A DNA stretch of 64,000 bases from an uncultured Candidatus Saccharibacteria bacterium (GCA_964402035.1 CAYOAM010000003.1:162657-226656), one strand, 5' to 3'; shown: positions 3,009 to 53,901, numbered from the stretch's first letter. Numbers and translations: made by a program. The notes: a model not told the origin generated them from the sequence alone.

Positions 3009-3563
3009 TTACGGCGTCCCTGTGATCATGTCGCGTAACACTTTCATGCCACGATTGATCCGTACTGAGACCACGTTTTCTGTTTCTTCAATGAGTACCG
3101 CTATCTCTTTTGGGCCAAGTCCATCTACGTACCTTAGTGTCAAAATCTCACGATAGACGAGCGGCATTGTACCTATAACTTCGATGATTCGTTTTGCATC
3201 GAGCGCCGCCAATGTCTCCTCGAGTGACCCTTCCGCTAGATCGGAAAACCGTCCACTGTCCATCCCCTCTTCTTCCAACAGTGCGTCGAGCGACTCTGTG
3301 CGACGTCTGCGATACTCGTCAATGATCAGGTTACCGAGGATTTTGTAGAGGAATGGTCGATATGTCTCAACCACATTTCCCCCACGTACGTACCCCCAAG
3401 CTTTTGTAAATGCATCATGCACGAGCTCTATTGCCCGCTCATGATCAGATACACGTATGACCGCATGCCGATACAACGCATCAGCATAATCATCAAACGC
3501 TTTCAAAAAACGTTCTTCGTGGCTCCCCGCTGCCTCGTTCGCTTTTAACGTTCGTTTGGCCAT
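3009..3563 (-). CDS. ECF-type RNA polymerase sigma-70 factor
   Basis: Sigma-70 region 2 (YRHAVIRV...DLVHDAFTKAW) and region 4 (PLVYREILTLRYVDGLGPKEIA) motifs, ~180 aa. Confidence 0.85.
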   Translation of the reverse strand: MAKRTLKANEAAGSHEERFLKAFDDYADALYRHAVIRVSDHERAIELVHDAFTKAWGYVRGGNVVETYRPFLYKILGNLIIDEYRRRRTESLDALLEEEGMDSGRFSDLAEGSLEETLAALDAKRIIEVIGTMPLVYREILTLRYVDGLGPKEIAVLIEETENVVSVRINRGMKVLRDMITGTP

Positions 3564-3762
3564 GTGGAACCATTATATATAAAGACGTACGAGAGTACGA
3601 ACCCTTTCAGTGCTTAGGAAGCACAAATGGGGAAAATACAAGGTTTAGCGAAATTAACCGTTTTATGTGCAATCATTGAGTTTGTTCTTAGGGTTTGGGG
3701 GATGAATCTAAGCCTATTTATTTTAGAAAATGGCTTTGTTGAAGTGTTTTTATGGTTTTAGC

Positions 3763-3791
3763 TTGACATTTTAGTTAGATATGACATTATA
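3763..3791 (+). promoter_or_regulatory. Sigma-70-like promoter (TTGACA-17-ATTATA) for the 3817 gene
   Basis: Perfect -35 TTGACA at 3763-3768, a 17-bp spacer, then -10 ATTATA at 3786-3791. An RBS AGGAAAGG lies 6 nt before the ATG at 3817. Confidence 0.55.
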
Positions 3792-3816
3792 AAAGCAGGA
3801 CTGGTTCTAGGAAAGG

Positions 3817-4161
3817 ATGGACAAAATGATACGCGCGACCATTCAGGGTTCGTTTTCGGGTCAAGCCGTAATCGACGCCGTTAAGGCCGTTGCTGAAGAA
3901 TTGTATCTAGTTGAGGATGGGTTCGACGATGGCCCAACAAAGACTGTGGGGCAGCGTTCCAATGACCCGCACAAGCACATCATCGTGCTAGTGGATTCCT
4001 CCGATTCAATTCACCCGAAGAGAAAGTATTCCGTGGTTACCGTTCAACATCATGGTTGGGGTGGTAGGGTATTCGCCATTGAGCCCACAGCTGAATGCAA
4101 AATTCAGGAGGTCAGAGACTTTTGCAGCAGACTCTCTGCCTATTTGAATTTGAACCCTTGA
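3817..4161 (+). CDS. Hypothetical protein (114 aa)
   Basis: ORF with its own promoter, RBS and a strong downstream terminator. Confidence 0.55.
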   Translation: MDKMIRATIQGSFSGQAVIDAVKAVAEELYLVEDGFDDGPTKTVGQRSNDPHKHIIVLVDSSDSIHPKRKYSVVTVQHHGWGGRVFAIEPTAECKIQEVRDFCSRLSAYLNLNP

Positions 4162-4176
4162 TTTTCGATTTTCACC

Positions 4177-4229
4177 CGCCCAACCCCAGAGATCGCCCGA
4201 TCTCTGGGGTTGGGCGTTTTCTTTTTTTG
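4177..4229 (+). terminator. Strong Rho-independent terminator
   Basis: 19-bp perfect stem (cgcccaaccccagagatcg / cgatctctggggttgggcg) with a 2-nt loop, followed by ttttcttttttt. Confidence 0.85.
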
Positions 4230-4571
4230 TATAAAGACGTGAGTTTTAGAGGGAACGGGGCCGAGTAATCGGTCACAACTCTCGCTTCGCTCGGTCGCGA
4301 CCCCGCCTCAGCGCTGCATCCCGCCCCGCGGGCGCGCTTGCGGCCTTCGATTCTCGGACGGAAAGCACCCCGTGCTTTCCTCACCCAACGAAAATACTGC
4401 GTATTTTCGGGGCGCTAGATCGTCCCCAAAATTCTAACTAAAATCAGTACTACGTCTGATTTTAGCTAAGATTTCTGGACGGCGACTCGAATATTGCACT
4501 GAAAAGTGCAATATATACTGCGCCGCTTCGATTCTCGGTCGAAAGCTTTGCTTTCTCGCACCTCACTTCGT

Positions 4572-4642
4572 TCGGGGCGCCGAGAATCGAACTCGGTCTA
4601 TCTGGTCCCAAACCAGACGTACTACCGGTATACTACGCCCCG
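4572..4642 (-). tRNA. tRNA-Pro (anticodon UGG), CCA not encoded
   Basis: Manual fold of the minus strand. Acceptor CGGGGCG / CGCCCCG with C1:G72 and A73 (Pro-typical). D-stem GTAT/GTAC, anticodon stem TCTGG/CCAGA, loop TTTGGGA, T-arm CCGAG-TTCGATT-CTCGG. 71 nt. Confidence 0.8.
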
Positions 4643-4842
4643 TATATATTTATTTTACATTAAAACCAGGCCTACCGGTCCGCTAGCTGGCGGAACTACG
4701 CCCTGTATATTTGATGTAGCCACTATCCTAACACGGCACAATAAAAAAGCGAAGAAATTGGCTAATTCTCAAGCATATAGAGCATAAAGGTCATAATGTC
4801 CTTTATGCTCACCCACTATTCTATTTACAATACTTCCCATTT

Positions 4843-5856
4843 GTTACACGTGAAACTACTGATACCGTCACAAAATTCTAGTTTATTTTTGAAAATTTCT
4901 TCACAAAGATATAGTTTCACATGGAACACTATTAATTACAATACAAAAATCACTCCATGATCACATTATCAATAATCCGAATAGTAGCTTTTCTCGATAC
5001 TGGATCAATTGCCACAGCCGCAACATCAAGCTGCCAATCCCCTTTATATTGATTTTTAGCAATCCATACTTGGATAGTGTTGTAGACTTTTCTCAATTTA
5101 TCCCTATGTACATTGTCTTCTGGTCTGTATGTTCCATGTGAAACATTATATTTAGAAATATTTTCCCCCATTTCACGTGAAACTGTCTTAACTTCAATGA
5201 AATGAACTCTTCTATCTTTTTCTAAAATGATGTCAATTTCTCCTGTTTTTGCCCGAAAATTGGATTCAATATGAGAAAAACCTTGCCTTTTGAGATGGTT
5301 CCACGTGGCAATTTCGCCTTTCCTACCCAGAGTCATCTTTAAAGTTTCCATAGTGTACTAGGTAAAGTATATCCAGTAATAGAGTTTTCTGTTGCCAGTA
5401 TGCACAGTTCCATGTGGAACAGTCAGATAATACTGACCTATTCAATTATGTAAGAAAATACTTGAATAGAACTTACTTTCTACTCATTCAAAATGAAACA
5501 CTGAATTCACTTTGGCATGTTTCATGTGTAACATGTTCCACGTGGCACACTTATTTATAGAAACCTTATTTTAAGCCATTTTATAAAATTCAATGTCTTT
5601 TATATTTGTCCTTTATACACATATCCACTGACTTATACACAGGTGGAAATTTGTCTGAAAAAGTCATTTCCACAGTCTGTACAGCTGTTTTGCAGAGGAA
5701 ATCAAGTGGAAATTCACAGCGTTGTACCCAAAAATTACCTCCACTTGTGGATAAATAGGGAGGACGTGTATCTAGTTTCATGTGGAACTGGATTTATTCG
5801 TCTTTTAGTAGAGTTTTGGGGTCAGGTTCGTAATTCGTTTCATCTTTCAGTGAAAC
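4843..5856. repeat. Cluster of ~10 copies of a 14-bp palindromic motif GTTYCAYGTGRAAC
   Basis: Copies at 4843-4856, 4914-4927, 5131-5144, 5170-5183, 5298-5311, 5407-5420, 5519-5532, 5535-5548, 5775-5788, plus an interrupted copy at 5837-5856. Spacing is irregular. Copies lie both inside and flanking the YraN-like gene. Confidence 0.7.
4950..5351 (-). CDS. YraN/UPF0102-family predicted endonuclease
   Basis: ~130 aa with the characteristic 'KTGEIDIILEK...VHFIEVKT' core of the UPF0102 (YraN) family. Confidence 0.65.
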   Translation of the reverse strand: METLKMTLGRKGEIATWNHLKRQGFSHIESNFRAKTGEIDIILEKDRRVHFIEVKTVSREMGENISKYNVSHGTYRPEDNVHRDKLRKVYNTIQVWIAKNQYKGDWQLDVAAVAIDPVSRKATIRIIDNVIME

Positions 5857-5963
5857 TCATAACGACCTCCTCCCCGGACTCGTGGTTTTTGCACTAGGCA
5901 AAAACATCGCTCCGTCTCACAAAACGCAAAATACGAGACGTTGGTCTCGTATTTTGTCTGTTT

Positions 5964-5986
5964 TGTGCGGGCAGGGGGAATCGAAC
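5964..5986 (-). repeat. 23-nt exact duplicate of the tRNA-Gly 3' end (T-loop to discriminator +2), att-like
   Basis: tgtgcgggcagggggaatcgaac is identical to 6110-6132. Upstream context (TAGAG instead of GGGGG) cannot form a T-stem, so this is a fragment rather than a second tRNA. Confidence 0.75.
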
Positions 5987-6111
5987 TCTACGAGTTCGGT
6001 ATGGTCTGTCGCTATTTTGTTTTGTCTAGGACTCACAAAATTGCTGGCAGACCCTTCGATTCCCGGCAAAAAGAAGGCTTTTTGCTCCTGCAGCCAAATA
6101 CTGCGTATCTG

Positions 6112-6182
6112 TGCGGGCAGGGGGAATCGAACCCCCGACTCATCCATGGCAAGGATGTATTCTACCACTAAACCATGCCCGC
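6112..6182 (-). tRNA. tRNA-Gly (anticodon GCC), CCA not encoded
   Basis: Manual fold. Acceptor GCGGGCA / TGCCCGC, anticodon stem CATCC/GGATG, loop TTGCCAT, T-arm GGGGG-TTCGATT-CCCCC. 71 nt. Confidence 0.8.
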
Positions 6183-6313
6183 TTTGTGAGACGATTATAC
6201 TACATCACCCAACATAATCCAGCGTTTAAATATGCTGTGCGCTATATTTTAATAAATTGACTAATGTAGATATTGCTGTAGATTGACGCCTAGGTTCAAT
6301 CCAAAATAGGGGA

Positions 6314-6949
6314 GTGGCGATGAAATCCAACGCAGAAGCAATCTCCAGATTTGTACGTGATCTGGAGGTAAAACTTGACCTTGCGTATGCGGTTCCAGGA
6401 CACATACTATTTCAAGACTTTCAGCTTACTCCAACTGCGGAACCTATGGGAGTCGTGGAGATCTTGTACAACTCATGGAAGAGACTTGCACCTCCTGAAC
6501 AATCCCGCGCGACTGACCTTGTTGCTGACACCCTCACATGTTGTGCTGCGGTGTACACGAGAACGAATTTCGATGTCACCATAGTCCTTTTGGATTTGGC
6601 ATATGCCATCAATCCAAAGCTGGTGCCCAGAGATGTGCTCCGTACCCTCTTCCTTCGGCCATCGGGGCTTCCTCATGAAGAAGCGGTACATCCGGTATTT
6701 CTCGGCCGGCTTATGAGTAGCATGATGTCGAAAAGTCTTAAGAATCCGCTAACCAACGACGAGTGGGCTTGGGTCGGAAGTCACATCGAACTACTTTCTC
6801 TTGACAAGCTAATCTACTACACGAGAAAACATCCCGAAATCGACGTTGCTTCAGTTCTGAGACGGCGAATTCAGGAAAATAGATCTACCTTTTTTGTATT
6901 CGGGGAAAATCCCGACGTACTTCTTGAGTTGCTCTCAAAAGCCGCCTGA
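6314..6949 (+). CDS. Hypothetical protein (211 aa)
   Basis: Clean ORF between the tRNA-Gly and tRNA-Arg loci. No recognisable motif. Confidence 0.5.
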   Translation: MAMKSNAEAISRFVRDLEVKLDLAYAVPGHILFQDFQLTPTAEPMGVVEILYNSWKRLAPPEQSRATDLVADTLTCCAAVYTRTNFDVTIVLLDLAYAINPKLVPRDVLRTLFLRPSGLPHEEAVHPVFLGRLMSSMMSKSLKNPLTNDEWAWVGSHIELLSLDKLIYYTRKHPEIDVASVLRRRIQENRSTFFVFGENPDVLLELLSKAA

Positions 6950-7057
6950 CAGGCTCCCAATCGGGTGCCTGTTTTTAAATTCCAATACGCTCGCAAATGT
7001 TGTCCTGCTTTGCCCATGTATGAAAAAACAACGCCCATGCGTTGTTTTTTCTCATGT

Positions 7058-7079
7058 GTGCACCTGTCAGGACTCGAAC
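7058..7079 (-). repeat. 22-nt exact duplicate of the tRNA-Arg 3' end, att-like
   Basis: gtgcacctgtcaggactcgaac is identical to 7199-7220 and lies ~140 bp downstream of the intact tRNA. Confidence 0.75.
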
Positions 7080-7163
7080 ATTACATGTTCAGTTCAGGTT
7101 GTATGATAATTTCTTCCATTGGTCGAAATTATCGACAACCTTTTCGAGTCCATGGGCCTGAAA

Positions 7164-7190
7164 TAAAAAACCGGCATAAAGCCGGCTTTT
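7164..7190. terminator. Bidirectional hairpin (aaaaaaccggc-ataaa-gccggcttttt)
   Basis: GC stem flanked by an A-tract and a T-tract, between the tRNA-Arg gene and its duplicated 3' fragment. Confidence 0.55.
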
Positions 7191-7199
7191 TATTTCAGG

Positions 7200-7271
7200 T
7201 GCACCTGTCAGGACTCGAACCTGAAACGTCTCGTCCGAAGCGAGATATGATATCCATTTCACTACAGGTGC
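7200..7271 (-). tRNA. tRNA-Arg (anticodon UCG), CC encoded, terminal A not
   Basis: Manual fold. Acceptor GCACCTG / CAGGTGC, D-stem GTGA/TCAT, anticodon stem TCTCG/CGAGA, loop CTTCGGA, T-arm TCAGG-TTCGAGT-CCTGA. Confidence 0.75.
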
Positions 7272-7288
7272 ATGTGACACTGAGCTTA

Positions 7289-7978
7289 CTACCCTTTCAT
7301 TAAATATTCAAACTGCATTGATTGCCAAAATTTCATTTGACAAAGAAGCGCGTGGCTCTTAGGTACCTCTATACGAAGACACCCAATGTACCCTGGGCGT
7401 TTTTTAACGCCCAGGTTTGTTGGTTTATATACAGTTTTAACAAATTGTGCTTCTGAAACTCCAAGCTTTTTCATCCAAAGTGCCTCGAGATGTTCGTGTG
7501 CGTATGGTTTGTGAATATACAACCGATATCGCAAGGTTATACGCTCTCGTTGTACGAATTTCTCTAACCAATGAATCATGACGAGCGCCATTTCATAGTC
7601 AGAATTCGTGAATAAAAATTGATTATGTCGCCGTGCTCCCTCAGCCCAATACAACGCAATCCCGATATGAAATAGGGGATCATCCTTATACTGCTTAAAA
7701 ATTGTTTTTGCGGAAATAAAATACTCTTTTTCGCGGATAAGTCTGTTTCGCCTATGCACCGCACCTGCACGTATACGACCTCTTGTAATATTGCCCTCTT
7801 TTCTTTTTCTCAGAAAGATCTTTTCTTCGGCAGTTAACGGAAAATCTTTCAACCAGAGCGATAGGGAACTTTTCGACACCAAAACCTCTTTTAGAATTTC
7901 TTTGTAGCTTAAGCCCTGTCTTCTCAATTCTATTGCTCTATTTTTTTCTATTAGTTTAGGGACCATGTTACATTTCAT
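7289..7978 (-). CDS. Hypothetical DNA-binding protein with N-terminal HTH; possible LAGLIDADG-like endonuclease
   Basis: N-terminus 'ELRRQGLSYKEILKEVLVSKSSLSLWLK' resembles a resolvase/transposase-type HTH. 'HIGIALYWAEGARR' weakly resembles a single LAGLIDADG motif. The gene ends 18 bp from tRNA-Arg. Confidence 0.35.
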   Translation of the reverse strand: MKCNMVPKLIEKNRAIELRRQGLSYKEILKEVLVSKSSLSLWLKDFPLTAEEKIFLRKRKEGNITRGRIRAGAVHRRNRLIREKEYFISAKTIFKQYKDDPLFHIGIALYWAEGARRHNQFLFTNSDYEMALVMIHWLEKFVQRERITLRYRLYIHKPYAHEHLEALWMKKLGVSEAQFVKTVYKPTNLGVKKRPGYIGCLRIEVPKSHALLCQMKFWQSMQFEYLMKG

Positions 7979-8040
7979 AATAACATGGTTCGAACACCAG
8001 TCGAGTAGCTAAAATGCAAAAATGGTTCTAGAATGACGGT

Positions 8041-9519
8041 ATGTCAATGATAGTCCGCAGCGAAATTCCGAAAGAAGTACTCTTTGTCGCAGACACGCTC
8101 GAAGCAGCGGGTTTTGAAGCATACCTCATCGGAGGCTGCGTGCGCGACATCTTAATAGGGAAGCGACCAAAGGATTGGGACATCACCACCAATGCACGTC
8201 CAGAAGAAATAACAGGACTCTTTGTGAACACCTACCAGAACAATGATTTTGGCACGGTGGGCGTCGTCAACGACGAAACGACTGACGAGACGCTCAAAGT
8301 AGTCGAAGTCACTCCATATCGCGTAGAATCAAGCTATTCTGACGCGCGCAGACCTGATTCTGTCTCATTTAGTACTTCAATTGAGGACGATCTCAAACGC
8401 CGCGACTTTACCATCAACGCTATTGCGTATCGCCCTAGAAACGAGGAATTTATTGATCTGTTCGAAGGAATAGGGGACTTAAAGGCAAAACGACTCCGCG
8501 CGGTAGGTATTCCGCATGACCGCTTTGCTGAAGATGCTCTCAGGATGATGCGTGCCGTTCGACTTGCGGTCGAGCTTTCATTAGTTATTGATGGTGACAC
8601 GCTGACCGCCATAGCGGGCAACGCCGAAAACCTAGGTCGTATATCGAAAGAGCGCATTCGAGACGAGTTTATCCGTATCTTGCAATCGAAGCAGCCCATG
8701 CAAGGCATTATTTTCCTTGAAAAGCTTGGCCTTTTGCCCTATATCGCTCCTGACCTCCTCCGGGGCATCGGGGTCGCGCAAAACCAAGCCCATGCTTTCG
8801 ATGTATACGAGCATCTCCTGCGCACCATGCAGCATGCTGCAGACCAAGATTGGCACTTTGATATCCGCCTTGCAGGACTTTTTCATGATATCTCAAAACC
8901 TGAGACTCGACGCTGGTCCGATGAGAAGAAAGATTGGACGTTTCATGGGCACGAAGTGGTTGGTGTACGTGTAACAAAAAAAGCGCTTGAAGCACTCAAG
9001 TTTCCACGTGAAACGATGGATCGGGTCCTAAAACTCGTACGCTGGCACATGTTTTTTTCAGACCCGGATCAAGTCACTCTTTCTGCCGTACGTCGGACCA
9101 TACAAAATGTGGGGGAGGAGAACGTGTGGGATCTATTAAAACTCCGTATTTGTGACCGCATCGGCACGGGGCGACCAAAGGCACAGCCATTTAGACTCCG
9201 CAAATACACTGCGATGGTGGAAGAAGCACTTCGCGACCCAATTAGCGTCAAGATGTTGAAGATTGATGGGGCAAAAATTATGGAAATTAGTGGGGAAAAG
9301 CCCGGGCCAAAGCTTGGTCATGCCCTCCATGCACTCCTCGAAGAGGTACTTGAAGATCCAAAGGTAAATACGGCTGAATACTTGGAAAAGAGAGCGGCAG
9401 ATCTTATGAAAATGCCTATTGACGCACTTAAAGCTCTTGGTGATAAGGGGAAGGATAAGCAGCGATTAGAAGAAGAAGGTGCAATCAAAGCTATCCAGAG
9501 AAAGCACCATGTAGCCTAA
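8041..9519 (+). CDS. cca: CCA-adding tRNA nucleotidyltransferase (PolyA-pol head plus HD domain)
   Basis: 'LIGGCVRDILIGKRPKDWDITTNARPEE' nucleotidyltransferase motif, 'RDFTINA' motif, and a C-terminal HD domain (HAFDVYEHLL...FHDISKP). Confidence 0.85.
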   Translation: MSMIVRSEIPKEVLFVADTLEAAGFEAYLIGGCVRDILIGKRPKDWDITTNARPEEITGLFVNTYQNNDFGTVGVVNDETTDETLKVVEVTPYRVESSYSDARRPDSVSFSTSIEDDLKRRDFTINAIAYRPRNEEFIDLFEGIGDLKAKRLRAVGIPHDRFAEDALRMMRAVRLAVELSLVIDGDTLTAIAGNAENLGRISKERIRDEFIRILQSKQPMQGIIFLEKLGLLPYIAPDLLRGIGVAQNQAHAFDVYEHLLRTMQHAADQDWHFDIRLAGLFHDISKPETRRWSDEKKDWTFHGHEVVGVRVTKKALEALKFPRETMDRVLKLVRWHMFFSDPDQVTLSAVRRTIQNVGEENVWDLLKLRICDRIGTGRPKAQPFRLRKYTAMVEEALRDPISVKMLKIDGAKIMEISGEKPGPKLGHALHALLEEVLEDPKVNTAEYLEKRAADLMKMPIDALKALGDKGKDKQRLEEEGAIKAIQRKHHVA

Positions 9520-21478: not shown

Positions 21479-22423
21479 ATGATTGCCCGCGTCTTCTCGG
21501 CACAGCCAGCGGTTCAAGGAGGACATGTGGTCACGATCGAAACAGACCTCGCGAGAGGTCTGTATTCGTTTACGGTCGTCGGCCTCCCGGACAAAGCCGT
21601 CGAAGAAGCGCGCGATCGCTTGAGCGCCGCTATAAAGAATTCCGGTTTTGAATCTCCCAAAAGCAAAAATCACAAAATTATTATTTCATTGGCGCCTGCA
21701 GATTTGCGCAAAGAAGGGCCGCTCTTTGATCTTCCGATGGCCGTGGGGTACTTGATCGCCGCACACGACATACAAGCATCGGTTGCAGACACGTTAATAA
21801 TCGGTGAACTTGCGCTCGATGGCACCATACGTGGCGTGCGTGGCGCATTGCCGATTGTTCAGGTAGCAAAGAATGCAGGGTTCAAAACGGTCATCGTACC
21901 AAAAGAAAATGCGCTCGAAGCAGCACTCGTGCCTGAGATTGAAATCATTGCAGCCGGCACCCTCCTTGATGTCGTACGACACCTTGATCACACAAGGGAA
22001 GATCATCAACTACTCACTCCAGAGCCTCACACAGACATTATTCCAACGTGGAGCGAGAGCACTATATATCTTGAAGATATCAAAGGACAGGAAAGTGCAA
22101 AGAGGGGACTCTTGATTGCCGCAGCAGGACGACACAACAGCATCATGATCGGTCCACCCGGCACGGGGAAAACGATGCTCGCGCGCGCATTTCAAAGTAT
22201 GTTGCCACCGCTCTCTATAGAAGAAGCGCTCGAAGTCACCGCGATACATTCAATAGCTGGCACGCGCGACGAACCGGTGATAACACTCCCTCCTTTTCGT
22301 GCACCACACCACACAGCTTCACACACTGCGCTCGTGGGTGGCGGTATGCATCCGCGACCTGGGGAAGTCACCCTCGCACATCGGGGCGTACTTTTCTTAA
22401 AGTCAGTCCCACAAAACGTTTAG
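21479..22423 (+). pseudogene. comM: comM (YifB/Mg-chelatase-like AAA+ ATPase) 5' fragment, interrupted at the Walker-B 'GVLFL' by an inserted element
   Basis: N-terminal Lon-protease-like domain ('LPDKAVEEARDRL') and Walker A 'GPPGTGKTM'. The ORF ends 'LAHRGVLFL|KSVPQNV*'. The expected continuation 'DEFPEF...' resumes at 33138. Confidence 0.85.
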
Positions 22424-22621
22424 TCTTTCTAGAAAAGGTGCTTCTCTTAATATTAAGTAGCGAATCTTTTTTGAGGTGATTTATACATTCAGTGTAATCA
22501 GTAGGTAACAGTTGGTAAAATAAGTCACATGTTAAATTGTAGGACACACTTTATGAAAACAGTCCTTCAATAATTTATTGAACCAAATCGATTTTTCGCC
22601 AAAAAATGCTATATTTAGGCG

Positions 22622-23551
22622 ATGGATGACATCATAAACAGATCGATTTTAAAGAATAAAGGTAAGCTTTTGTCATACTATAGAGAGCAGGCAGCAGAGC
22701 TTATAAAAGAACTCAGAAGAGTTTACTCTGACAGCGAATATCGAAAACGAGCCGTTGCTGTAAATAATGGTCTTACAAATTTGAGAAAATCTCTTATTTC
22801 TAATTTATTGGAAAAAGCGGAGACCGAGTCTTGGTCTGCTGAGGAGGTATTGTCTGGAGTACTACTGGTGACATATACCAACTATGTAGTAATGATGGAA
22901 TCCAGAAATGATGTTTGGCCGTATGAGTATATGGCTTTTGCTCGTAGAATTGGTGAGTTGTGGGAACCATTCTGTCAGTTATGTTGGGTACATCCCGTAA
23001 AGGCTGGCATTTCATACATTGAACCTCCTGTGTATTCACATGTTAAAAATCAGCTTTTAGACAATATCAAATCTTACGTTAATGACCTAAAGCTGGAAAA
23101 GGAACAAAAGGATGTTTTGTTAAATCATTATGAAACTATCTCTGCACTGGTTAGTTCTGGTGAAATAAATCTTGAGCTTGATTTACACTTTAAATCAGGC
23201 GGGAAAAAATATGTCGTTGATTTTAAAAGTGGCTTTAGTTCTAACGAGAAAGGTAACACCAATCGACTATTACTTGTTGCAAATATCTACAAATCCCTAA
23301 ACGAGGGATACAATTGCCTACTTTTTGTAAGGTCAAACGAAGAAATGAACAATCATTATCTTCAAACACTTAAAAAGTCTGGTCTATGGACAGTTTACTG
23401 TGGAGAAGAAACCTATAAAATAGTAAGTACATACACGGGTTTTGACCTAGCGTCGTGGATGAAAAAAAATATTAACTGGGCTGAAGACTTCGATGAGAAA
23501 ATGTATGCACATTTAAAGCAAAATCAATTGCTACAGTATTTAGAATGGTAG
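22622..23551 (+). CDS. Putative PD-(D/E)xK nuclease (candidate restriction endonuclease)
   Basis: 'ELDLHF...YVVDFKSG' fits a D...(D/E)xK catalytic core. Its 3' end overlaps the start of the methyltransferase gene by 7 nt. Confidence 0.4.
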   Translation: MDDIINRSILKNKGKLLSYYREQAAELIKELRRVYSDSEYRKRAVAVNNGLTNLRKSLISNLLEKAETESWSAEEVLSGVLLVTYTNYVVMMESRNDVWPYEYMAFARRIGELWEPFCQLCWVHPVKAGISYIEPPVYSHVKNQLLDNIKSYVNDLKLEKEQKDVLLNHYETISALVSSGEINLELDLHFKSGGKKYVVDFKSGFSSNEKGNTNRLLLVANIYKSLNEGYNCLLFVRSNEEMNNHYLQTLKKSGLWTVYCGEETYKIVSTYTGFDLASWMKKNINWAEDFDEKMYAHLKQNQLLQYLEW

Positions 23552-25044
23552 ATAAAATTATTCAAGGAAAAAAACGTACTCATAGACAATACGCTTCATA
23601 CTATACAGATTCTGAACCAATCTTGTCTTACATGGTACAAAAACTTAACGTCGCCGAAGGCGATGCAATTTTCGAACCTTGTGCTGGTGACGGTGCCTTT
23701 ATAGAAAAAATCTTTTCAAAAAATTCAAGTGATATTTCGATTCACGCTGTTGACCTAAACCCCATTGCTGTCAATAATCTGAAAGAAAGATTTTCTTCAG
23801 CGAACATACTAGTGGAACAGGTTGATACCTTGCTCGACCGCTCTGTGTTGACTAAAAAGTATTCAAAAATAATTGGCAATCCACCATACGGAGCTTGGCA
23901 AGATTTATCAAAAAGAGATGAATTAAAAAAAATATATGGAGGTTACGTAAAAGAAACGTACACTCTCTTCTTACAGAAGTGCATTGATTTGCTTGAAGAA
24001 AATGGAAAGCTGGTATTTATTATCCCAGATACTTTTCTTGCATTACATATGCATAAGGGAACCAGAGCGAAGATTCTAACCAAAACACGAGTCGAAGAAA
24101 TCCTGTTAATACCATCAAATTTCTTTCCTGGGGTTAATTTTGGTTATGCAAACCTCTGCATAATTACACTTGTTAAAAGTGAATCTGTGGCAGGTAATAC
24201 TATAAAGATTGCCTCGGTTAGAGACTCTGTTGAAAAGTTAACAACGCTTGCAAGTGGAGACTATTCTGAGTGTCATTCTTTGGAATCTCTTTTGCAAGAT
24301 GACGTTTTAAACTCAGAAAATCTTTCGTTTTTTATTGGAAGCAACGAATCATCAAGAAGCTTAATGAAAGAGGATGTTCTCAAACTTGGAGACATAGCGG
24401 ATTGTGTTACCGGTTTCTATTCAGGGGACAATAAGAAATACATCAGGGTTCTAAATAAGGACATTAAGAGGTCGAATGGCTACTCAATAGTAGATAGTAA
24501 AGAAGTCGAATATACCCATTTTCCAGCTGACATTTTAAAACAAGGATTGACGAAAAAAAGCTATATTCCGTACTTAAAAAATGCGATTGGTACTTTTTCA
24601 ATTGAGACCCAATGGTTCATTCAGTGGGACAAAAACACAGTTCAGGAATACAAAAAAGACAAACGAGCTCGATTCCAAAATTCTGAATTTTATTTCAAGG
24701 AAGGTATAGGAGTACCAATGATTAAAAGCAGTAATACACACGCAGTATTGTTAGAGAAAAGGTTGTTTGACCAGTCCGTTGTTGGGGTCTTCCCCAAAGA
24801 TTTGAAACATAGAGATTATCTGCTAGCTTTCCTCAACTCAAAAACTTGCAGTAAGTTACTAAACATTATTAATCATACGGCTAATAATTCCGCAAACTAT
24901 CTCAAAAAACTCCCTATCATCGTCAATGACGAGGGTGTAAAAGTGGTCAATAAAATAATGTCGAAATACTTTGAAAGTAAGGACAAAACCAAAGCTCTTG
25001 CAGAAATCGATGAATTCTTTACTAAACTCTACAATTTGGACTAA
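23545..25044 (+). CDS. N6-adenine DNA methyltransferase (gamma-class, NPPY motif)
   Basis: SAM-binding 'FEPCAGDGAF' (motif I) precedes 'IIGNPPYG' (motif IV), followed by a long C-terminal target-recognition region. Confidence 0.75.
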   Translation: MVDKIIQGKKRTHRQYASYYTDSEPILSYMVQKLNVAEGDAIFEPCAGDGAFIEKIFSKNSSDISIHAVDLNPIAVNNLKERFSSANILVEQVDTLLDRSVLTKKYSKIIGNPPYGAWQDLSKRDELKKIYGGYVKETYTLFLQKCIDLLEENGKLVFIIPDTFLALHMHKGTRAKILTKTRVEEILLIPSNFFPGVNFGYANLCIITLVKSESVAGNTIKIASVRDSVEKLTTLASGDYSECHSLESLLQDDVLNSENLSFFIGSNESSRSLMKEDVLKLGDIADCVTGFYSGDNKKYIRVLNKDIKRSNGYSIVDSKEVEYTHFPADILKQGLTKKSYIPYLKNAIGTFSIETQWFIQWDKNTVQEYKKDKRARFQNSEFYFKEGIGVPMIKSSNTHAVLLEKRLFDQSVVGVFPKDLKHRDYLLAFLNSKTCSKLLNIINHTANNSANYLKKLPIIVNDEGVKVVNKIMSKYFESKDKTKALAEIDEFFTKLYNLD

Positions 25045-25270
25045 CGAGGAGTCTATTTACTTTTCTTCAAAAAGAAATACTATTTACTGACAACTTAATA
25101 TAAATGACCTAACCCTCAGTCGTAAGATTGAGGTATGGTCGAAAACCGTTGAAGACAAACACCCCATTATCAGGGCGCGTCTTCAACGTTATAAGGGGAA
25201 ACTCTTATAGGACTTCGGTCCACCTGGTAGTGGGTTTTTTGTATCTCGTTACCAGAATCTTACTTATTTA

Positions 25271-25864
25271 ATGAATAGATTTATGAACGAGAAAACTAAC
25301 GTTTTGGATAAAAAAATACCATGGTGGGCTGGACTAGCATTTTTTATATTTGTTATAAGTACGTTACTGTACGGACTTTTAGGAGGCTTTTCTACAGCTT
25401 CGAAAGTTGAAGAAGTTTCAAAGGAAGAAGTTAAAACTGACCAGCCAGCCAAAGAACCAATAATACAAATTGCGACCTTGTACAACATTCCAATGTCGAA
25501 GTTGTCTGAGCAATTTACTGCCCCACTGAACAGTGCGGGGAATCTTGTTATAGATACCGATGAGTACAAGCTACTGATTGAAAGTAAAAACGGCGTGAAC
25601 TCAGACTATGTGGAAGTGCAACTCAAAGCTCTTGGTAGTTGTGCTAAATCTGGTGTACCCCGAAACAGTGATGAGGCACTGCAACTAGTAGGGTTGAAAC
25701 CGCAGCTAAAGGGTAACCCGACCAATCCTCCTGCTGGGATAGCGAATGGTGCGATTGAGTACTGTGACTATCCGAGTGATAAATTCTCCGTCGGTGCTTC
25801 ATGTATGTATGACGGTGGATATTACGATGTCAGCCTGTCTCCACGTACATATTGTGGCAACTAG
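25271..25864 (+). CDS. Hypothetical secreted/membrane-anchored Cys-containing protein
   Basis: N-terminal TM/signal segment (WWAGLAFFIFVISTLLYGLLGG). The C-terminal half contains 4 Cys. Confidence 0.45.
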   Translation: MNRFMNEKTNVLDKKIPWWAGLAFFIFVISTLLYGLLGGFSTASKVEEVSKEEVKTDQPAKEPIIQIATLYNIPMSKLSEQFTAPLNSAGNLVIDTDEYKLLIESKNGVNSDYVEVQLKALGSCAKSGVPRNSDEALQLVGLKPQLKGNPTNPPAGIANGAIEYCDYPSDKFSVGASCMYDGGYYDVSLSPRTYCGN

Positions 25865-26526
25865 GGTACGTTTAGTTGTCCAGAAAACGTTAGCTACGGC
25901 ATTCGATAGCGGAAAGGCGAGGTAATATACCAACCTCTGTAAAAGTTATTCACAGTCATTGAGTTACAGAACAATAATATTTTTTAGTCAAAAACCCTTA
26001 TTTAAAGGGGTTTTTTGCTTATAGCTTCTTCTATATACTTCCAGCTCCTTATAGATTTTTATAGATAATTACATCTTCTTCTACGTGTACGTCAAGACCA
26101 TCTAGGTGTAGTGTTCGGAGTAACAATGACTAATCAGCCAGAACAGAACATTGAGCATGGTCCCGCAGGTGTCGAATGGACACTTCTCTTTGGGAAGCTA
26201 CTGACCGATAAGTCAGCGTCGAAATTATCAAATAAATCTGAAACCGACACCGGCAATCAGATTGCAATCAAAACAAACAATGAAAACACTTATAACGAAG
26301 CAAACGAATTTAACCAAGTCACCTATAACTCTCGCTGACCTCGTGAACACTGGCTACGCTCATATCAGCACTGACATTAACAAAGCAAGAGAGAATATCG
26401 AACGATATGCAACTACCGCAGTTCGAGTGATTGCACCAAAGAATTGTAGAGATATAACAATCGACTTATCAAAACCTGACAAGCCGAGAGTGAGATACAA
26501 GATTACCAAGAATATGACGAGCTAGC

Positions 26527-27228
26527 ATGGCTAGAAAGAAAGTTCAGCAAAACGAAAGATTTCCTGGCTTTCCAAAAAGCATCAATCGTGGATTCTTTCG
26601 GTATCCAACAATTCTTGAAAAATACTGGTGTGACCTCGAAGGTTCTGAACAAAAGGTTTTAGACTACATCCTTCGTCAGACTAAGGGTTGGGGCAAGAAT
26701 TTTGACAAAATCAGCTTGTCTCAGTTTGCGAAAGGAAACGGAAAAAATACAAAGGGTGCAGGTATTAGTGAAACGCAGGCAGCTGCTGCGCTTAAAGCGC
26801 TGGAAGTGAAAGGCTACATAACAGTCGAACGACGAGCTAGAAAGACGAATGTTATTCACCTCAAGTATGACGAGACTGTCAGTGATAGTCCGAAGTGTAG
26901 CGATGAGATTCGAGAACTCATCATGCAATTTGAACCAGTCGCTAACCACTTAGTAAAGGACTACTTGGAAGATGAGCGTGAAATATCTGCTCTTGAAGAG
27001 CTTGTCACCTATTACGGCTACCATAAGGTGAGAGATTGTATCTCGGTACTCAGGGATTCAAACCCAGAGCAGTACATGCCTACGATAATCTCACCCAGAG
27101 ACCTCAGAACAAAGATGCCTAGTCTATTATCGGCTATTGCAACTATGCAGATAGAGCACGATACGTTTTGGCAGGTCAATCTAGATAATGATAGACGTTT
27201 CGTCTCGAAAATTGAAAAAATACTTTGA
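26527..27228 (+). CDS. Winged-helix protein, possible replication initiator / DnaD-like
   Basis: 'QKVLDYILRQTKGW...ISLSQFAKGNG...ISETQAAAALKALEVKGYITVER' resembles the N-terminal wHTH of phage/plasmid replication initiators. Confidence 0.35.
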   Translation: MARKKVQQNERFPGFPKSINRGFFRYPTILEKYWCDLEGSEQKVLDYILRQTKGWGKNFDKISLSQFAKGNGKNTKGAGISETQAAAALKALEVKGYITVERRARKTNVIHLKYDETVSDSPKCSDEIRELIMQFEPVANHLVKDYLEDEREISALEELVTYYGYHKVRDCISVLRDSNPEQYMPTIISPRDLRTKMPSLLSAIATMQIEHDTFWQVNLDNDRRFVSKIEKIL

Positions 27229-27493
27229 GGTGGTTAGGTGATTGGTACAAAAGTTGGATATCTGTATCACAACTGATACCAGGAAAAAGTGAAACTGTAC
27301 CAATCTGTTATCAGACAATAGATAGATAGGTATCTACAAAATTGTATATATTCACACTCACTTGAAAGTGAGTGTAGATAATTCTGGAAATAAGATTATT
27401 TAACGACCAGTAATTAAATAGGGAGTCCCTACCTCGCTTGTTAACAGTCACACTACACAACATATATACAAAGTTGTAAAGATATGGAATTAT

Positions 27494-27560
27494 ATAACTG
27501 AGAAACCGTTGTTTTAAGCCAAATTTCCGGCTGTGGCAACTACCCCTTCTCAGTTATATG
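27494..27560. repeat. 13-14-bp inverted repeats (TATATAACTGAGAA ... TTCTCAGTTATAT) separated by ~40 bp, upstream of the recombinase genes
   Basis: Read directly from the sequence. Candidate recombinase binding or crossover site. Confidence 0.5.
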
Positions 27561-27708
27561 AACCATATTGACGACATTAAAGACTACTTAATCGCAGATG
27601 AGATTCAGCGCATTCAGTCGTTGTCACATGAACAATTGGTTTGTGAACTGATTGAAGTGAAAACACGAGATATAGAGCTGGGCAAAATCACCATTAACAC
27701 TAACGTAC

Positions 27709-28128
27709 ATGGAAACTAAGAAAACACTAATTATTAACTCAAAGAGCTTGAACGGGTTGCGCTACTTCGGCATAACTAAAAAGTGTATCGAACATTGCCA
27801 GACACAAAAATGGGCTATCGAACCCGATAACATTCATAGCGAAATAAACCTCACTCCTTACGTAGAGTATGAAGGGGTACCTGAGAACGAACCAGTCTAC
27901 ATGATTGAAAAAAATAGAGTTGCGTGTCTGCTCACTTATTCAATCGAAAGCCTTGGTCTATCACTACGTGAACTGCTAGAACTCATGCATTTACTTGAAA
28001 AGCATGAGGTGAGGCTCGTCTCAGTAACTGAGAAACTAGAACCCGACACTCATTCGGGAAGACTGAGGATTCACCTAGCCGCAATAACCGCTGAGTTTCG
28101 ACGTGCGGATAATGCTAACTATCTATGA
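27709..28128 (+). CDS. Resolvase-like catalytic-domain remnant lacking the Ser nucleophile region
   Basis: 'LSLRELLELMHLLEKHEVRLVSVTEKLEPDTHSGRLRIHLAAITAEFRRAD' matches the C-terminal half of a serine-recombinase catalytic domain. There is no 'RVSTxxQ' motif. It overlaps the start of the next gene by 4 nt. Confidence 0.5.
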   Translation: METKKTLIINSKSLNGLRYFGITKKCIEHCQTQKWAIEPDNIHSEINLTPYVEYEGVPENEPVYMIEKNRVACLLTYSIESLGLSLRELLELMHLLEKHEVRLVSVTEKLEPDTHSGRLRIHLAAITAEFRRADNANYL

Positions 28129-29882
28129 ATGACCCAGCTACTGTAAAGAACAAACGTGTTGCTATATACCTCCGTGTCTCCACTGACGAACAGGCTAAGG
28201 AGGGTCACTACGGTTTGAAAGTTCAAGAAGATAGACTTCGACAGTTTTGTGCCAGCCAAGGTTACGAACTCAGTGAAGAACATGTTTACCGTGACGAGGG
28301 CTACTCTGGGACTCTTAAAGTTGAAATGCGACCTGGTCTATCTGCCCTGTATGAAGCAGCAAGGGAAAAACAGTTTGACACGTTGATTGTCTACAAACTC
28401 GATAGACTATTTCGTAATCAAACCAAGCTACTAGTATCACTTGAACAGCTCATAGATTATGGCGTAGGTTTCCAATCAGCAACGCAGTCGTTCGATACGG
28501 ATACATCAACAGGTCGTCTCATGATGCAAATTCTGGGTTCCTTTGCTGAACACGAGCGAGAACTGATTCGTGAACGAATGACAGCCGGTAAACTTCGCGC
28601 AGCTAAAGAGGGTAAATGGGTCACTGGTGTTCCGCCTTACGGATATCGAGTTGACGAAAAAACACAAACACTCATTCCACAAGCTGAAGAAGCTGAGGTT
28701 GTCCAGAAATTCTACGAGTGGTTGGTTTATGAAAAATGCTCTCTGCGTGAAATCACTAAGCGTGCAATAGAACAAAACCTACCGACCCCGAAGCACAAGA
28801 ACGCGAAGGGTAAGAATAGAGTTGGCGGAAAATGGTACAAACGAACCATTAATCGAATTCTGGTCAATGAAGTTTATACAGGTCAGTTTTACTACAACAA
28901 GTACAAACGACCATTCCAATACCTGAATGCTGTACTGGACGAACAACATCAACGACCACAAGAAGACCATATTCTTATCACTGTTCCAGCAATCATTTCA
29001 TCCGATTTGTTTGAGAAGTCGATACAGCAACTGCAAGACAATCGTCGATTCCAAAAACGAAACGAGAAGCGTGTCTACCTGTTTGCTGGACTACTCTATT
29101 CAGGAATATCGGGACGTAAGTTGCAAAGTGGTTATCAAACACCCAAAAAGGATAAGACAACCCCGATTCTAGGGAAGTACTACCATGTATACGTTCCAGA
29201 CATAGACAGGAAACCTACTGATTGCGATAAAAATAACCCTGAAGGGCAATGTGCTGAAAGTCGATTGATTCCTATTTGGGATACGTTGGTCGCGATACTG
29301 AGCGACCCGAAGAACGTAATACCGCAACTGGAAGAGTACACCTTTAAGACCAGCAACGAGGTCAAAGTGAAGAAGGAGTTAGTGCTACTCGAAAAGCAAT
29401 TCGAGACACTTAGAGTAAAGAAGCAACGTGTTCAAGAAGTGTATCTGGAAGCACAAATGGATAAGGACGACTACAACAGTCGGATGAAGCAAGTGAGAAA
29501 GGACGAAAAGGATATAGTCATCCAGAAACAGAAACTGTCACAACTACTCCTAAAACAAGATGAACAAAAAGACCGAGATAAAATCATTCAATCACTCTAC
29601 GGCAGACTAAAAGCCAGAATCAGTAACGTGACCTACGAGGAAAAGCAATACATTCTTCGTTTGTTTGTCGAAAAGATTACTTTACACCACAAGAAAGGAT
29701 ATGCGGAGGTAGCATTCAAGTTCCCACTAAACACGAATGTTCCAACCACTGCACCTGCCAGCATGACAGAGGGTAGGCATATGCGACTGGTACTGCATGT
29801 GAAGATTTATTCTGAAAAAGAACGACGAATTCAAATCTTTCAAAGTGTTCCAGAGATGTGTAAAAAACCAGTAGCAGTATAG
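28125..29882 (+). CDS. Large serine recombinase (integrase)
   Basis: N-terminal 'VAIYLRVSTDEQ' resolvase catalytic domain, a recombinase domain, and a C-terminal coiled-coil/zinc-ribbon-like region. 585 aa. Confidence 0.85.
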   Translation: MNDPATVKNKRVAIYLRVSTDEQAKEGHYGLKVQEDRLRQFCASQGYELSEEHVYRDEGYSGTLKVEMRPGLSALYEAAREKQFDTLIVYKLDRLFRNQTKLLVSLEQLIDYGVGFQSATQSFDTDTSTGRLMMQILGSFAEHERELIRERMTAGKLRAAKEGKWVTGVPPYGYRVDEKTQTLIPQAEEAEVVQKFYEWLVYEKCSLREITKRAIEQNLPTPKHKNAKGKNRVGGKWYKRTINRILVNEVYTGQFYYNKYKRPFQYLNAVLDEQHQRPQEDHILITVPAIISSDLFEKSIQQLQDNRRFQKRNEKRVYLFAGLLYSGISGRKLQSGYQTPKKDKTTPILGKYYHVYVPDIDRKPTDCDKNNPEGQCAESRLIPIWDTLVAILSDPKNVIPQLEEYTFKTSNEVKVKKELVLLEKQFETLRVKKQRVQEVYLEAQMDKDDYNSRMKQVRKDEKDIVIQKQKLSQLLLKQDEQKDRDKIIQSLYGRLKARISNVTYEEKQYILRLFVEKITLHHKKGYAEVAFKFPLNTNVPTTAPASMTEGRHMRLVLHVKIYSEKERRIQIFQSVPEMCKKPVAV

Positions 29883-29886
29883 GCCG

Positions 29887-30507
29887 TTAATCTTGCTTAT
29901 TAAGTGAGTGGATGACGGCCTTTGCTATACCTACAATTTCGAAGGAATCTGATTTTTTAATTTTCAGGTCTTTATATTCAGGATTGCTAGATCGAAGTAT
30001 TATTTCATTACTCTCCTTAATAACCTTTTTTATTTTAGGTTCACCGTTGTGTAGTACTAACGAAAGTTGGCCTGGAGAATCTAAGGTTTCATCCTTCTGA
30101 AACAGAACTAAGTCACCAGAGTTAATGTTTGGAGACATTGAGTCACCTTTTGCTAACACCGCAAAGATAGAGCTGGGGTCAGAGATATTAAACATCTTTG
30201 TAGATATAGAAATCTTTTCTTCGAGGTTAGACTCACTTACCAAGTCACTAGCATGACCGCAGGAAGCCATTCCATACCTACTGATGGTAACGACATCTTC
30301 TACAGGGCTTTTCAAAACCTCAAAAGTTGAGTTGTCGCCTCTTCGGAGGTAGCCCTTATTTTCTAATTGACGTAAATGGTGAGCCACATTCTGTGCGCTA
30401 CCAAGGTCAGCCTCTTTTGCAATTTGCCAAAGACTCATCTCAGACAAGGCTTCTTCATTTTCAATCAAAAAATTCAGCAGCTTTTGCTGGCTGGGGTGTA
30501 ATTGCAT
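29887..30507 (-). CDS. LexA/CI-like repressor (S24 peptidase family)
   Basis: N-terminal LexA-type winged helix ('SQQKLLNFLIENEEALSEMSLWQIAKEADL...VAHHLRQLENKGYL') and a C-terminal S24 domain ('GDSMSPNINSGDLVLF', Lys in 'KIKKV'). Confidence 0.75.
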   Translation of the reverse strand: MQLHPSQQKLLNFLIENEEALSEMSLWQIAKEADLGSAQNVAHHLRQLENKGYLRRGDNSTFEVLKSPVEDVVTISRYGMASCGHASDLVSESNLEEKISISTKMFNISDPSSIFAVLAKGDSMSPNINSGDLVLFQKDETLDSPGQLSLVLHNGEPKIKKVIKESNEIILRSSNPEYKDLKIKKSDSFEIVGIAKAVIHSLNKQD

Positions 30508-30744
30508 AACAAGAGCAGTATATATGACAGGGAGACATTTGTACACACTTTATTAACAGGAAACGAAACATTTGACGTTTTCCACCGCTACCGTACAATA
30601 GTACGAAGAAAGCCAGCTTGCGCTGACTTTCGAACGAATATTATTCCTCTTCAGGTTAGTGTAACACCACTTTCCTGAAGGTCCGACCGACTGGTCTTAC
30701 TTTACATAGTATTCCAGTTGGGCGGGCTAATCAAGTATTGGCCT

Positions 30745-30963
30745 ATGCGTAAGTATTACGTAAACCACAACGAACAGCCGGAGGGAGAACATGAGGTACA
30801 TGACTGGAATGCGAATTGCTCGCACCCACCACTCATGCAAAATCGTGTTGACCTCGGTTATCACACCACGTGCCGTGGTGCAATCTTTGAGGCACAAAAA
30901 CTTTATCCGCACTCACATGTAAACGGTTGCGCTTACTGTGTTCCAGACTGTAACTCTGACTAG
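30745..30963 (+). CDS. Small Cys/His-rich protein (possible Zn-binding), divergent from the repressor
   Basis: ~72 aa with C/H spaced as H..H..C..H...C...H.H..C..C..C. Confidence 0.35.
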   Translation: MRKYYVNHNEQPEGEHEVHDWNANCSHPPLMQNRVDLGYHTTCRGAIFEAQKLYPHSHVNGCAYCVPDCNSD

Positions 30964-30965
30964 TT

Positions 30966-31169
30966 ATGGCTCAATACGAACGCAACTCCGGCAAACGCTG
31001 GACAGTGAAAGAGGAAAAGCAACTCCGTTCTCTAGCAAAGGACAACACACCGACACGTGTCATTGGGTTGAAACTTGGCCGCCCTGTAGGGGGAGTGCAA
31101 GCTAAAGCACAAGAACTGGACGTGAGTCTGAAACCAACCAATCAGTCTCCGTACAATCGAAAGAAGTAG
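30966..31169 (+). CDS. Small basic hypothetical protein
   Basis: 67-aa ORF immediately following. Confidence 0.3.
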   Translation: MAQYERNSGKRWTVKEEKQLRSLAKDNTPTRVIGLKLGRPVGGVQAKAQELDVSLKPTNQSPYNRKK

Positions 31170-31374
31170 CAGAACCTTTACAGAGCATAATAGAATCCCT
31201 GCTTGTCAGGGGTTTTGTTATCATTGTGGGACAACTTTCCTAATAGTTGTCCTCCAGTTTATAAGATTTTGAACCCCAAATACTGCCATCTATCGACTTT
31301 TCCGTCATTGGTGGTATTTTTGTTTTACGTGCTATGACGCAAAAACGCCAAGTACCTAAGGAAAAAATCCAAAT

Positions 31375-33023: not shown

Positions 33024-33134
33024 ACGATTCCAACTGGGTGACTGTTGTTGCAGTATCTGTTCCTCAGTTTTGGCGCACTGAGTTGAGTAACAGTTATTGT
33101 AGAAGGTGTCCTACAAAATTGAGGGACAATAACA

Positions 33135-39944: not shown

Positions 39945-39947
39945 CGT

Positions 39948-43372: not shown

Positions 43373-43374
43373 TT

Positions 43375-44031: not shown

Positions 44032-44042
44032 CAAAACGCAGT

Positions 44043-46934: not shown

Positions 46935-46941
46935 AACCGTT

Positions 46942-48484: not shown

Positions 48485-48487
48485 TCT

Positions 48488-49453: not shown

Positions 49454-49454
49454 T

Positions 49455-53645: not shown

Positions 53646-53901
53646 AGCTGTGTATATCCCTGTGTATGTTGTGCACATATCTACGGGGAAAAGATAGCGG
53701 AAAAGTTTTGTCGACGACCAAAAAAGAGGAGAGTTGTACACACGGAGTGATTTTGAAACATAAACGCAGGATAACTTTCACACAACTACCGAATAGATTG
53801 TGAATAAAAAATCCATAGTATAAAACATATTATTTAGAAATCCCCATATCAACAGGATTAATAGTAAAAATACTTTTTAAATAGAAAATTAAAGAAAAGT
53901 T
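53646..53901. promoter_or_regulatory. Candidate oriC / DNA-unwinding element (AT-rich dnaA-dnaN intergenic region)
   Basis: The stretch 53790-53900 is very AT-rich. Degenerate DnaA-box-like 9-mers occur here (ttgtacaca, tttcacaca). In the rpmH-dnaA spacer there is TTATACACA at 52164-52172. Confidence 0.4.

Follow-up and report, generated by a model that had tools for sequence, protein, structure and literature searches.

The DNA analysed here, which we call the window, is a stretch of 64,000 nucleotides from an uncultured Candidatus Saccharibacteria bacterium, and our subject is a cluster of short palindromes lying between two of its transfer RNA (tRNA) genes, which is very probably a compact chromosomal centromere of the ParB-parS type. 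The window is a chromosome segment of an ultra-small bacterium from Patescibacteria (candidate phyla radiation, CPR), located on a 461.7-kb metagenome contig, and its closest homologues carry the labels Kaiserbacteria, Paceibacterota, Saccharibacteria or Nomurabacteria. The palindromes occupy a slot whose conserved edges are tRNA-Pro(tgg) (4572..4642) and tRNA-Gly(gcc) (6111..6182), both on the minus strand, where an earlier note on this DNA had placed them. Within this slot lies a YraN-like gene (4950..5351, minus strand; UPF0102, PD-(D/E)xK nuclease fold), which hosts three of the sites and whose name, already given in the earlier note, is borne out by its match to Pfam PF02021 (UPF0102/YraN; E = 2.2e-15, 57.2 bits against a cut-off of 23.6). 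A search of positions 3500-8200 for known RNA families returned just three tRNAs and sub-threshold noise.

The motif was defined as the 14-mer GTTYCAYGTGRAAC and scanned with up to two mismatches. There are four exact matches in the window (4914, 5131, 5407 and 5775), all of them inside the cluster, against an expectation of 0.00 in 100 shuffles; when up to two mismatches are allowed, ten distinct positions are found, equivalent to 20 strand-wise matches, for a shuffle expectation of 3.1 +/- 2.0 strand-wise matches. Nine of these ten positions (4843, 4914, 5131, 5170, 5298, 5407, 5519, 5535 and 5775) fall within 946 bp (4843-5788), and the sole position outside the cluster (9001..9014, TTTCCACGTGAAAC) is found inside the CCA-adding-enzyme gene, at its nucleotide 961, where it encodes F-P-R-E-T. 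The cluster of ten copies announced in the earlier note is, therefore, real but counts nine sites, since the supposed tenth (5843..5856, TCTTTCAGTGAAAC) is merely a half-site having only the right half GTGAAAC, which is not counted here, and both the original count and the original consensus were loose. The start-to-start spacings are 71, 217, 39, 128, 109, 112, 16 and 240 nt, and the copies are non-identical; with such irregular spacing and differing repeats, the array is not a clustered regularly interspaced short palindromic repeat (CRISPR) array, as had been recognised before.

At the core of canonical chromosomal parS, TGTTNCACGTGAAACA (review PMC7022226), stands this same 14-mer; read as 16-mers, the nine cluster sites differ from that parS by 1, 1, 1, 2, 2, 3, 3, 3 and 5 mismatches. 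Site 1 (4843..4856, GTTACACGTGAAAC; 16-mer TGTTACACGTGAAACT, 1 mismatch to canonical parS) lies in the intergenic stretch that separates tRNA-Pro from the 3' end of the YraN-like gene, and site 2 (4914..4927, GTTTCACATGGAAC), also intergenic, reads on the minus strand as the exact 14-mer and has 2 mismatches to the canonical 16-mer. The next three sites are inside the YraN-like gene: site 3 (5131..5144, 1 mismatch to the canonical 16-mer) covers codons 70-74, V-S-H-G-T, at a position kept in the orthologues; site 4 (5170..5183) covers codons 57-61, V-S-R-E-M, right behind the catalytic E-V-K motif, and is the best-conserved in-gene position; and the weak site 5 (5298..5311, GTTCCACGTGGCAA), at codons 14-18, departs from the 14-mer at 2 positions and from the canonical 16-mer at 5, and is not kept in relatives. 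Upstream of the gene is site 6 (5407..5420, GTTCCATGTGGAAC), a perfect palindrome, followed by site 7 (5519..5532, GTTTCATGTGTAAC, 1 mismatch to the canonical 16-mer) and site 8 (5535..5548, GTTCCACGTGGCAC), the latter aligning with a conserved and often perfect parS of the orthologues. These are the two copies which had been described as being 2 nt apart, and this is correct for the 14-mers, the two sites abutting each other when taken as 16-mers. Site 9 (5775..5788, GTTTCATGTGGAAC) is the outermost toward tRNA-Gly.

Relatives of the locus were collected by using the YraN-like protein as query with one genome per species, which returned 62 loci, designated here by the letter L and a number, while L069 and L070 were fetched later. 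Those syntenic with the window are L004-L022 and L048, having YraN-like proteins 27-49% identical to the query, plus L069 and L070, or about 22 loci, which share the gene order XerC, ExoIII, CCA-adding enzyme, tRNA-Arg(tcg), tRNA-Gly(gcc), YraN-like gene, tRNA-Pro(tgg), sigma factor and DUF5667, and whose CCA-adding enzymes are 55-75% identical. In every syntenic relative a cluster of the motif is present in the same slot, with 2-11 sites in 0.26-1.5 kb (most having 5-11 in ~1 kb), and the sites outside the array number 0-3 per related locus of 4-20 kb. The conservation in orthologous regions that the earlier note had proposed to look for is thus found across the ~22 syntenic relatives. Outside the array-bearing clade, 41 loci (L023-L047 and L049-L064), which are distant YraN homologues from Actinomycetota, Bacteroidota, Clostridia, Gammaproteobacteria and other Patescibacteria, contain one 1-mismatch match altogether. 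In the 77.7 kb of this genome that was read, the only sites outside the array are the one at 9001 and one weak 2-mismatch site; over this sequence, the uniform frequency that the earlier note had named as fatal to the idea of a special locus does not occur, and the near absence of the motif here and in the 41 outside loci speaks for its restriction to the array within the sequence covered.

A symmetrised frequency matrix made from 166 sites at 23 loci reads tGTT(T/c/a)CA(C/t)(G/a)TG(A/g/t)AACa and reproduces the parS consensus, including the flanking T and A, which are the commonest flanks (57%). Perfect canonical 16-mers are present in seven related arrays (L006, L007, L010, L011, L013, L019 and L069), and the central dinucleotide over the related sites is CG in 89 cases, CA in 41, TG in 24 and TA in 22.

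The earlier note had also seen that copies occur in coding DNA, as they do at 5131, 5170 and 5298, and had found this odd. The YraN-like gene is intact in all orthologues, with G-E, E-I-D and H-F-I-E-V-K-T invariant in 21 of them, and it carries sites at up to three conserved places in 14 genomes. These in-gene sites share one frame, GTT-YCA-YRT-GAA-AC, which encodes V-S/P-Y/H/R-E-T, in the peptide contexts E-V-K-T-V-S-Y-E-T, A-V-S-H-E-T-W-R-P-E-E and R-I-V-P-R-E-T-Y. Over the sequences that agree in the majority residue, the third base in commonest use reaches an average frequency of 0.90 at the 12 site codons versus 0.60 at the 89 others (Mann-Whitney P = 3.6e-6), and for the invariant V, K and T codons preceding the first in-gene place (E-V-K-T), all synonymous codons are used. 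In the sister subclade formed by L014, L018, L020 and L048, the YraN-like gene is intact and without sites, and V-S-R at the first place is written as GTC AGT AGG or GTG AGC AGA, which is not parS. Given that the site codons are nearly fixed, and that these residues are written in non-parS codons by the sister subclade, selection acts on the DNA sites and not on the YraN peptides. This removes the oddity, the sites being written into codons whose synonymous choice is fixed by selection on the DNA.

The same subclade has 5-6 sites in the CCA-adding-enzyme gene, at conserved positions (~nt 40, 525, 604, 822, 925 and 964) and in fixed frames, and the more distant L022 has 4 sites in its CCA gene; the outlying site of the window at 9001 is the last of these conserved CCA positions. 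The array has, therefore, changed its place among adjacent genes of the slot, and this movement between the YraN-like and CCA genes argues against a specific partnership with YraN. Most likely, the YraN-like gene is a mere host of some of the sites and no partner of them.

Regarding the position of the array in the chromosome, yidC, dnaA (52266-53645) and dnaN (53902-55002) are found in the window, and the GC skew at third codon positions (GC3 skew) of the plus strand is negative to the left of ~53.7 kb and positive to the right of it, in genes of both orientations. The sign changes from -0.17 in dnaA to +0.33 in dnaN, and the bulk skew agrees; given this flip, the replication origin is placed in the dnaA-dnaN intergenic region (53646..53901), ~48 kb from the array, with 10.7 kb of this distance made up by an element inserted in comM. 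At the array itself there is no change of sign in GC3 skew, which is the same on both sides, and a replication origin there was discarded because the skew flips at dnaA/dnaN instead, despite the DnaA-box-like repeats and AT-rich DNA that the locus contains. A plasmid origin of the array was also rejected, as a blastn search of 4600-6200 against the plasmid records of PLSDB gave no match. Chromosomal parS sites lie in the ori domain (PMC7022226), and so does this array by its distance from the skew-inferred origin, assuming a genome of at least about 0.5 Mb.

We consider it very likely that the array is a chromosomal centromere, that is, a loading zone for ParB in which about nine parS sites are closely packed. 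Of the options listed in the earlier note, the partition (parS-like) site array is the one supported, by a parS core motif which is clustered above chance, confined to the locus in the sequence covered, close to the origin, conserved in orthologous regions and under selection at the DNA level. By analogy with the characterised ParABS systems (PMC7022226), each 16-bp palindrome would nucleate ParB dimers as a clamp dependent on cytidine triphosphate (CTP), and these clamps would slide outward onto the neighbouring DNA. The packed sites would then work as one high-capacity loading zone, with many abutting sites raising the loading rate at one place, and the outcome would be a single partition complex near oriC, moved by ParA and able to recruit SMC. 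One parS suffices for segregation, and additional sites give robustness (PMC7022226). That ParB binds these sites, spreads from them and segregates the chromosome by means of them is, of course, carried over from the characterised systems and should be read as a prediction.

Several points weigh against this centromere. None of the sites in the window is a perfect canonical 16-mer, and in five of the nine the centre is CATGTG or CACATG rather than CACGTG, CATATG being frequent in relatives; moreover, the ori-domain placement holds only if the genome has at least the size assumed above. More importantly, ParB and ParA were absent from the window and 65 loci in tblastn searches with B. subtilis Spo0J and Soj, in which nothing scored better than E = 1.4 (the Spo0J query was validated, matching PDB entry 6sdk with E = 3e-121). 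No ParB-family domain appears in the precomputed Pfam annotations of the five annotated loci, including L066 (the extension to +72.7 kb), L069 and L070, and neither the 77.7 kb of contig sequence that was read nor the +/-10 kb around the ~22 related arrays showed a parB or parA gene. The cognate ParB of these sites is, therefore, a predicted protein only, with none located in the sequence read. Nevertheless, the supplement of PMC10633639 annotates, for Southlakia epibionticum, a Saccharibacterium in cultivation, an AAA ATPase of the ParA type (SEML1_0183, K03496) and a ParB/RepB/Spo0J protein (SEML1_0184; K03497, PF02195 + PF17762), so that the phylum has the system. In the same supplement, transposon sequencing (Tn-seq) scores the ParA and ParB genes as growth-defect or essential, and the parAB pair adjoins the L21 gene (K02888) and not the origin.

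Besides the palindromes, the slot contains at 5607..5644 (minus strand) three direct DnaA-box-like repeats, GTGGATA(A) in general form, followed by AAAGGACA and AT-rich DNA, and no other non-coding block of the locus is as well conserved. The repeats are GTGTATAA / GTGGATAT / GTGTATAA here and GTGGATAA in relatives, the latter agreeing at 8/9 bases with the DnaA box TTATCCACA taken in reverse complement, and the variant TGTGTATAA of this window recurs beside dnaA, at 52164 and 53650-53680. The block is found once per locus in 17 related loci, 105-340 nt upstream of the YraN-like gene and in the orientation of that gene; L033 has it despite being devoid of parS, L015 and L021 have it with few parS sites, and it was not detected at the threshold used in L010, L014, L018, L020, L022, L048 and L069, several of which have arrays. 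Given that the block follows the YraN-like gene across loci and not the parS sites, it looks like the upstream control region of this gene. It would thus be a part of that gene rather than of the centromere as such, with a probable role as promoter or operator, which may respond to DnaA. A promoter/terminator scan of 4600-6150 gave promoters not above the shuffle expectation. In the vicinity of the array, just downstream of it, there is also a near-perfect 15-nt inverted repeat at 4780-4810 (GAGCATAAAGGTCAT / ATGTCCTTTATGCTC), the right arm of which repeats the TGTCCTTTAT word of the DnaA-box block (5607-5621).

A composite locus, in which the parS array is interleaved with the triple DnaA-box element and the YraN-type nuclease gene so that ParB loading and DnaA occupancy are read out together, seems improbable to us. 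Such a locus might provide a DnaA- or ParB-dependent control of the nuclease, or else a means by which segregation and initiation influence each other in cells whose genomes are very small. In E. coli, yraN adjoins diaA, which hints at a link between YraN and replication initiation. In a different version, the locus would control replication, as a second origin or as a datA-like locus titrating DnaA, with the palindromes accessory to the DnaA boxes. The three DnaA-box-like repeats with AT-rich DNA inside the array, kept in 17 loci and having the same box variant as the one next to dnaA, are in favour of it, but the GC3 skew flips elsewhere and the box block accompanies the YraN-like gene even in the parS-free L033, and hence we find this version very unlikely.

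The palindromes might also be an operator set for some other dimeric DNA-binding protein which controls the YraN-like or flanking tRNA genes, the candidate being a helix-turn-helix (HTH) protein encoded at 7289-7978. It is true that the palindromes flank and overlap a gene, and that this protein (with a weak HTH_23 match) is encoded 2 kb away and has a paralogue directly beside the array in L004, L006 and L012. However, the motif is the pan-bacterial parS and no private operator, the HTH protein is undetected (tblastn, 1e-5) near the arrays of L005, L008-L011, L013 and others, and nine to eleven sites, several of them within the coding sequences of YraN or CCA depending on the subclade, are unlike a promoter operator; the operator array for a local regulator suggested in the earlier note found no specific support, and there is very little likelihood in it. 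The sites could, instead, be targets or recognition marks of the YraN-like nuclease within a self-contained and possibly mobile nuclease-plus-site module, given that the ~20 closest YraN-like homologues all carry sites and the distant ones do not, and that tRNA genes bound the slot, with partial tRNA duplicates nearby. But all site-bearing loci belong to one syntenic clade, so that shared ancestry of the locus explains the association; in addition, L014, L018, L020 and L048 have an intact but site-free YraN-like gene and keep their sites in the CCA gene, other Patescibacteria homologues of YraN (L033, L037, L042 and L043) have no sites, and the gene together with its sites was not found at another genomic location. 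We hold such a module to be highly unlikely, and a functional coupling of YraN with parS was likewise rated unlikely from the sister subclade. Lastly, short and irregularly spaced palindromes could be remnants of miniature inverted-repeat transposable elements (MITEs), an uptake-signal-like word or a chance cluster. Nonetheless, these are bare 14-16-bp sites with no shared flanks beyond the 16-mer, their positions and reading frame are conserved in orthologues with 34-49% protein identity, and exact matches are zero in the shuffles. A DNA uptake-signal-like word was discarded because nine of the ten window copies lie within 1 kb and the flanks of relatives are almost without copies, the motif being nearly absent outside the array in the sequence read. 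The shuffles, the outside-clade loci and the conserved reading frame effectively refute these last possibilities, whose remaining probability is negligible.

The centromere proposed here resembles the chromosomal parS of the B. subtilis Spo0J/parS type in its 16-bp palindrome, its multiple copies, its proximity to the origin and some in-gene copies, as B. subtilis has in-gene parS sites too. The differences are the density, with nine sites in 946 bp, the writing of several sites into the codons of housekeeping genes, the lack of a parAB operon for at least 10 kb around it, a central CG that is often CA, TG or TA, and a ParB gene that was not located in the sequence read. According to PMC7022226, the chromosome of B. 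subtilis has 10 parS sites, of which 8 fall within the ori domain; S. pneumoniae has 4 such sites, M. smegmatis 3, C. crescentus 5 and S. coelicolor 21.

With the centromere arrays of plasmids, the array shares the presence of many sites for one ParB-type protein in ~0.5-1 kb, which would act as a single centromere. F sopC, for instance, consists of 12 tandem 43-bp repeats, each with a 16-bp inverted repeat, and P1 parS is another plasmid centromere. In general, these plasmid arrays are regular tandem repeats of plasmid-specific sequences that adjoin their own par genes, unlike the irregular spacing, the chromosomal consensus and context, the codon-embedded sites and the lack of any match to a plasmid record found here. 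Another ParB-family protein, the paralogue Noc of Firmicutes, binds the Noc-binding site (NBS), ATTTCCCGGGAAAT, which is also a 14-16-bp palindrome of this type; in contrast, the NBS has A at position 2 and a CCCGGG centre, and in the sites described here the arms are GTT...AAC and the centre is CAYRTG, the bases specific to parS. Furthermore, the NBS are dispersed over the chromosome, avoiding the terminus, and are unclustered. DnaA-box clusters outside oriC are known as well, namely datA of E. coli and the DnaA-box clusters (DBCs) of B. subtilis, and the block 5607-5644 is similar to them in having three close DnaA-box-like words (8/9 to TTATCCACA in relatives). This likeness is limited to the side block and does not extend to the palindromes, the block tracks the upstream region of the YraN-like gene, and its binding of DnaA is putative. 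The array is, then, an element of a known kind whose arrangement is unusually dense and gene-embedded, the differences being of arrangement and not of kind, and no new mechanism is revealed by it.

Chromosome segregation in Patescibacteria (CPR) has hardly been examined so far, and our full-text searches of the literature gave no paper describing parS, or arrays such as this one, in Patescibacteria, CPR or Saccharibacteria. The present finding places a canonical ParB-parS system in this lineage, with its likely centromere pinned to a 1-kb slot that is recognisable across many metagenome-assembled genomes and may, therefore, aid in orienting and checking assemblies. It also provides a clean natural case in which a DNA-binding site constrains the choice of synonymous codons in two different genes, and it gives concrete sites for chromatin immunoprecipitation (ChIP) of ParB or for fluorescent tagging in the few cultivable relatives.

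Around the array, the tRNA genes show further features. The 3' end of tRNA-Gly is partially copied, with 5964-5986 being 100% identical to 6110-6132, and so is the 3' end of tRNA-Arg (7058-7088 versus 7199-7229, 87% identical), the partial copies sitting 141-146 nt downstream of their tRNA genes. The orientation of the three tRNA genes of the slot flips among relatives, and the partial copies together with these flips suggest that integrations or inversions took place at these tRNAs in the past. The HTH protein at 7289-7978 (minus strand) is 229 amino acids long, has a weak N-terminal HTH (HTH_23/HTH_7) and is conserved, lying between the CCA gene and the array; it has paralogues in L004, L006, L007, L012 and L019, and in some relatives these lie directly beside the array. 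No family or solved structure was matched by this protein, and its assignment as a LAGLIDADG endonuclease was unsupported by the Pfam and PDB searches.

Farther away, most of the genes flanking the inferred origin at ~53.7 kb point toward it (16252-62151), with those at 16.2-50.6 kb nearly all on the plus strand and those at 55.3-62.2 kb on the minus strand, an orientation that is head-on with replication and is unusual for bacteria. A run of plus-strand genes at 39018-50651, with PrgI-like, TraG/VirB4-like ATPase and type IV secretion system (T4SS)-pilin-like matches among proteins without a family match, forms a type IV secretion-like cluster that adjoins yidC and the origin. The comM/yifB gene (Mg-chelatase-like; region 21479-33737) is split into an N-terminal part at 21479-22423 and a C-terminal part at 33135-33737, and the ~10.7 kb between the two halves has a lower GC content (0.38-0.42) and encodes an Eco57I-like methylase, a protein resembling phage RepO, a large serine recombinase (28125-29882) and a LexA/S24-like repressor, so that the insert looks like an integrated prophage-like element.

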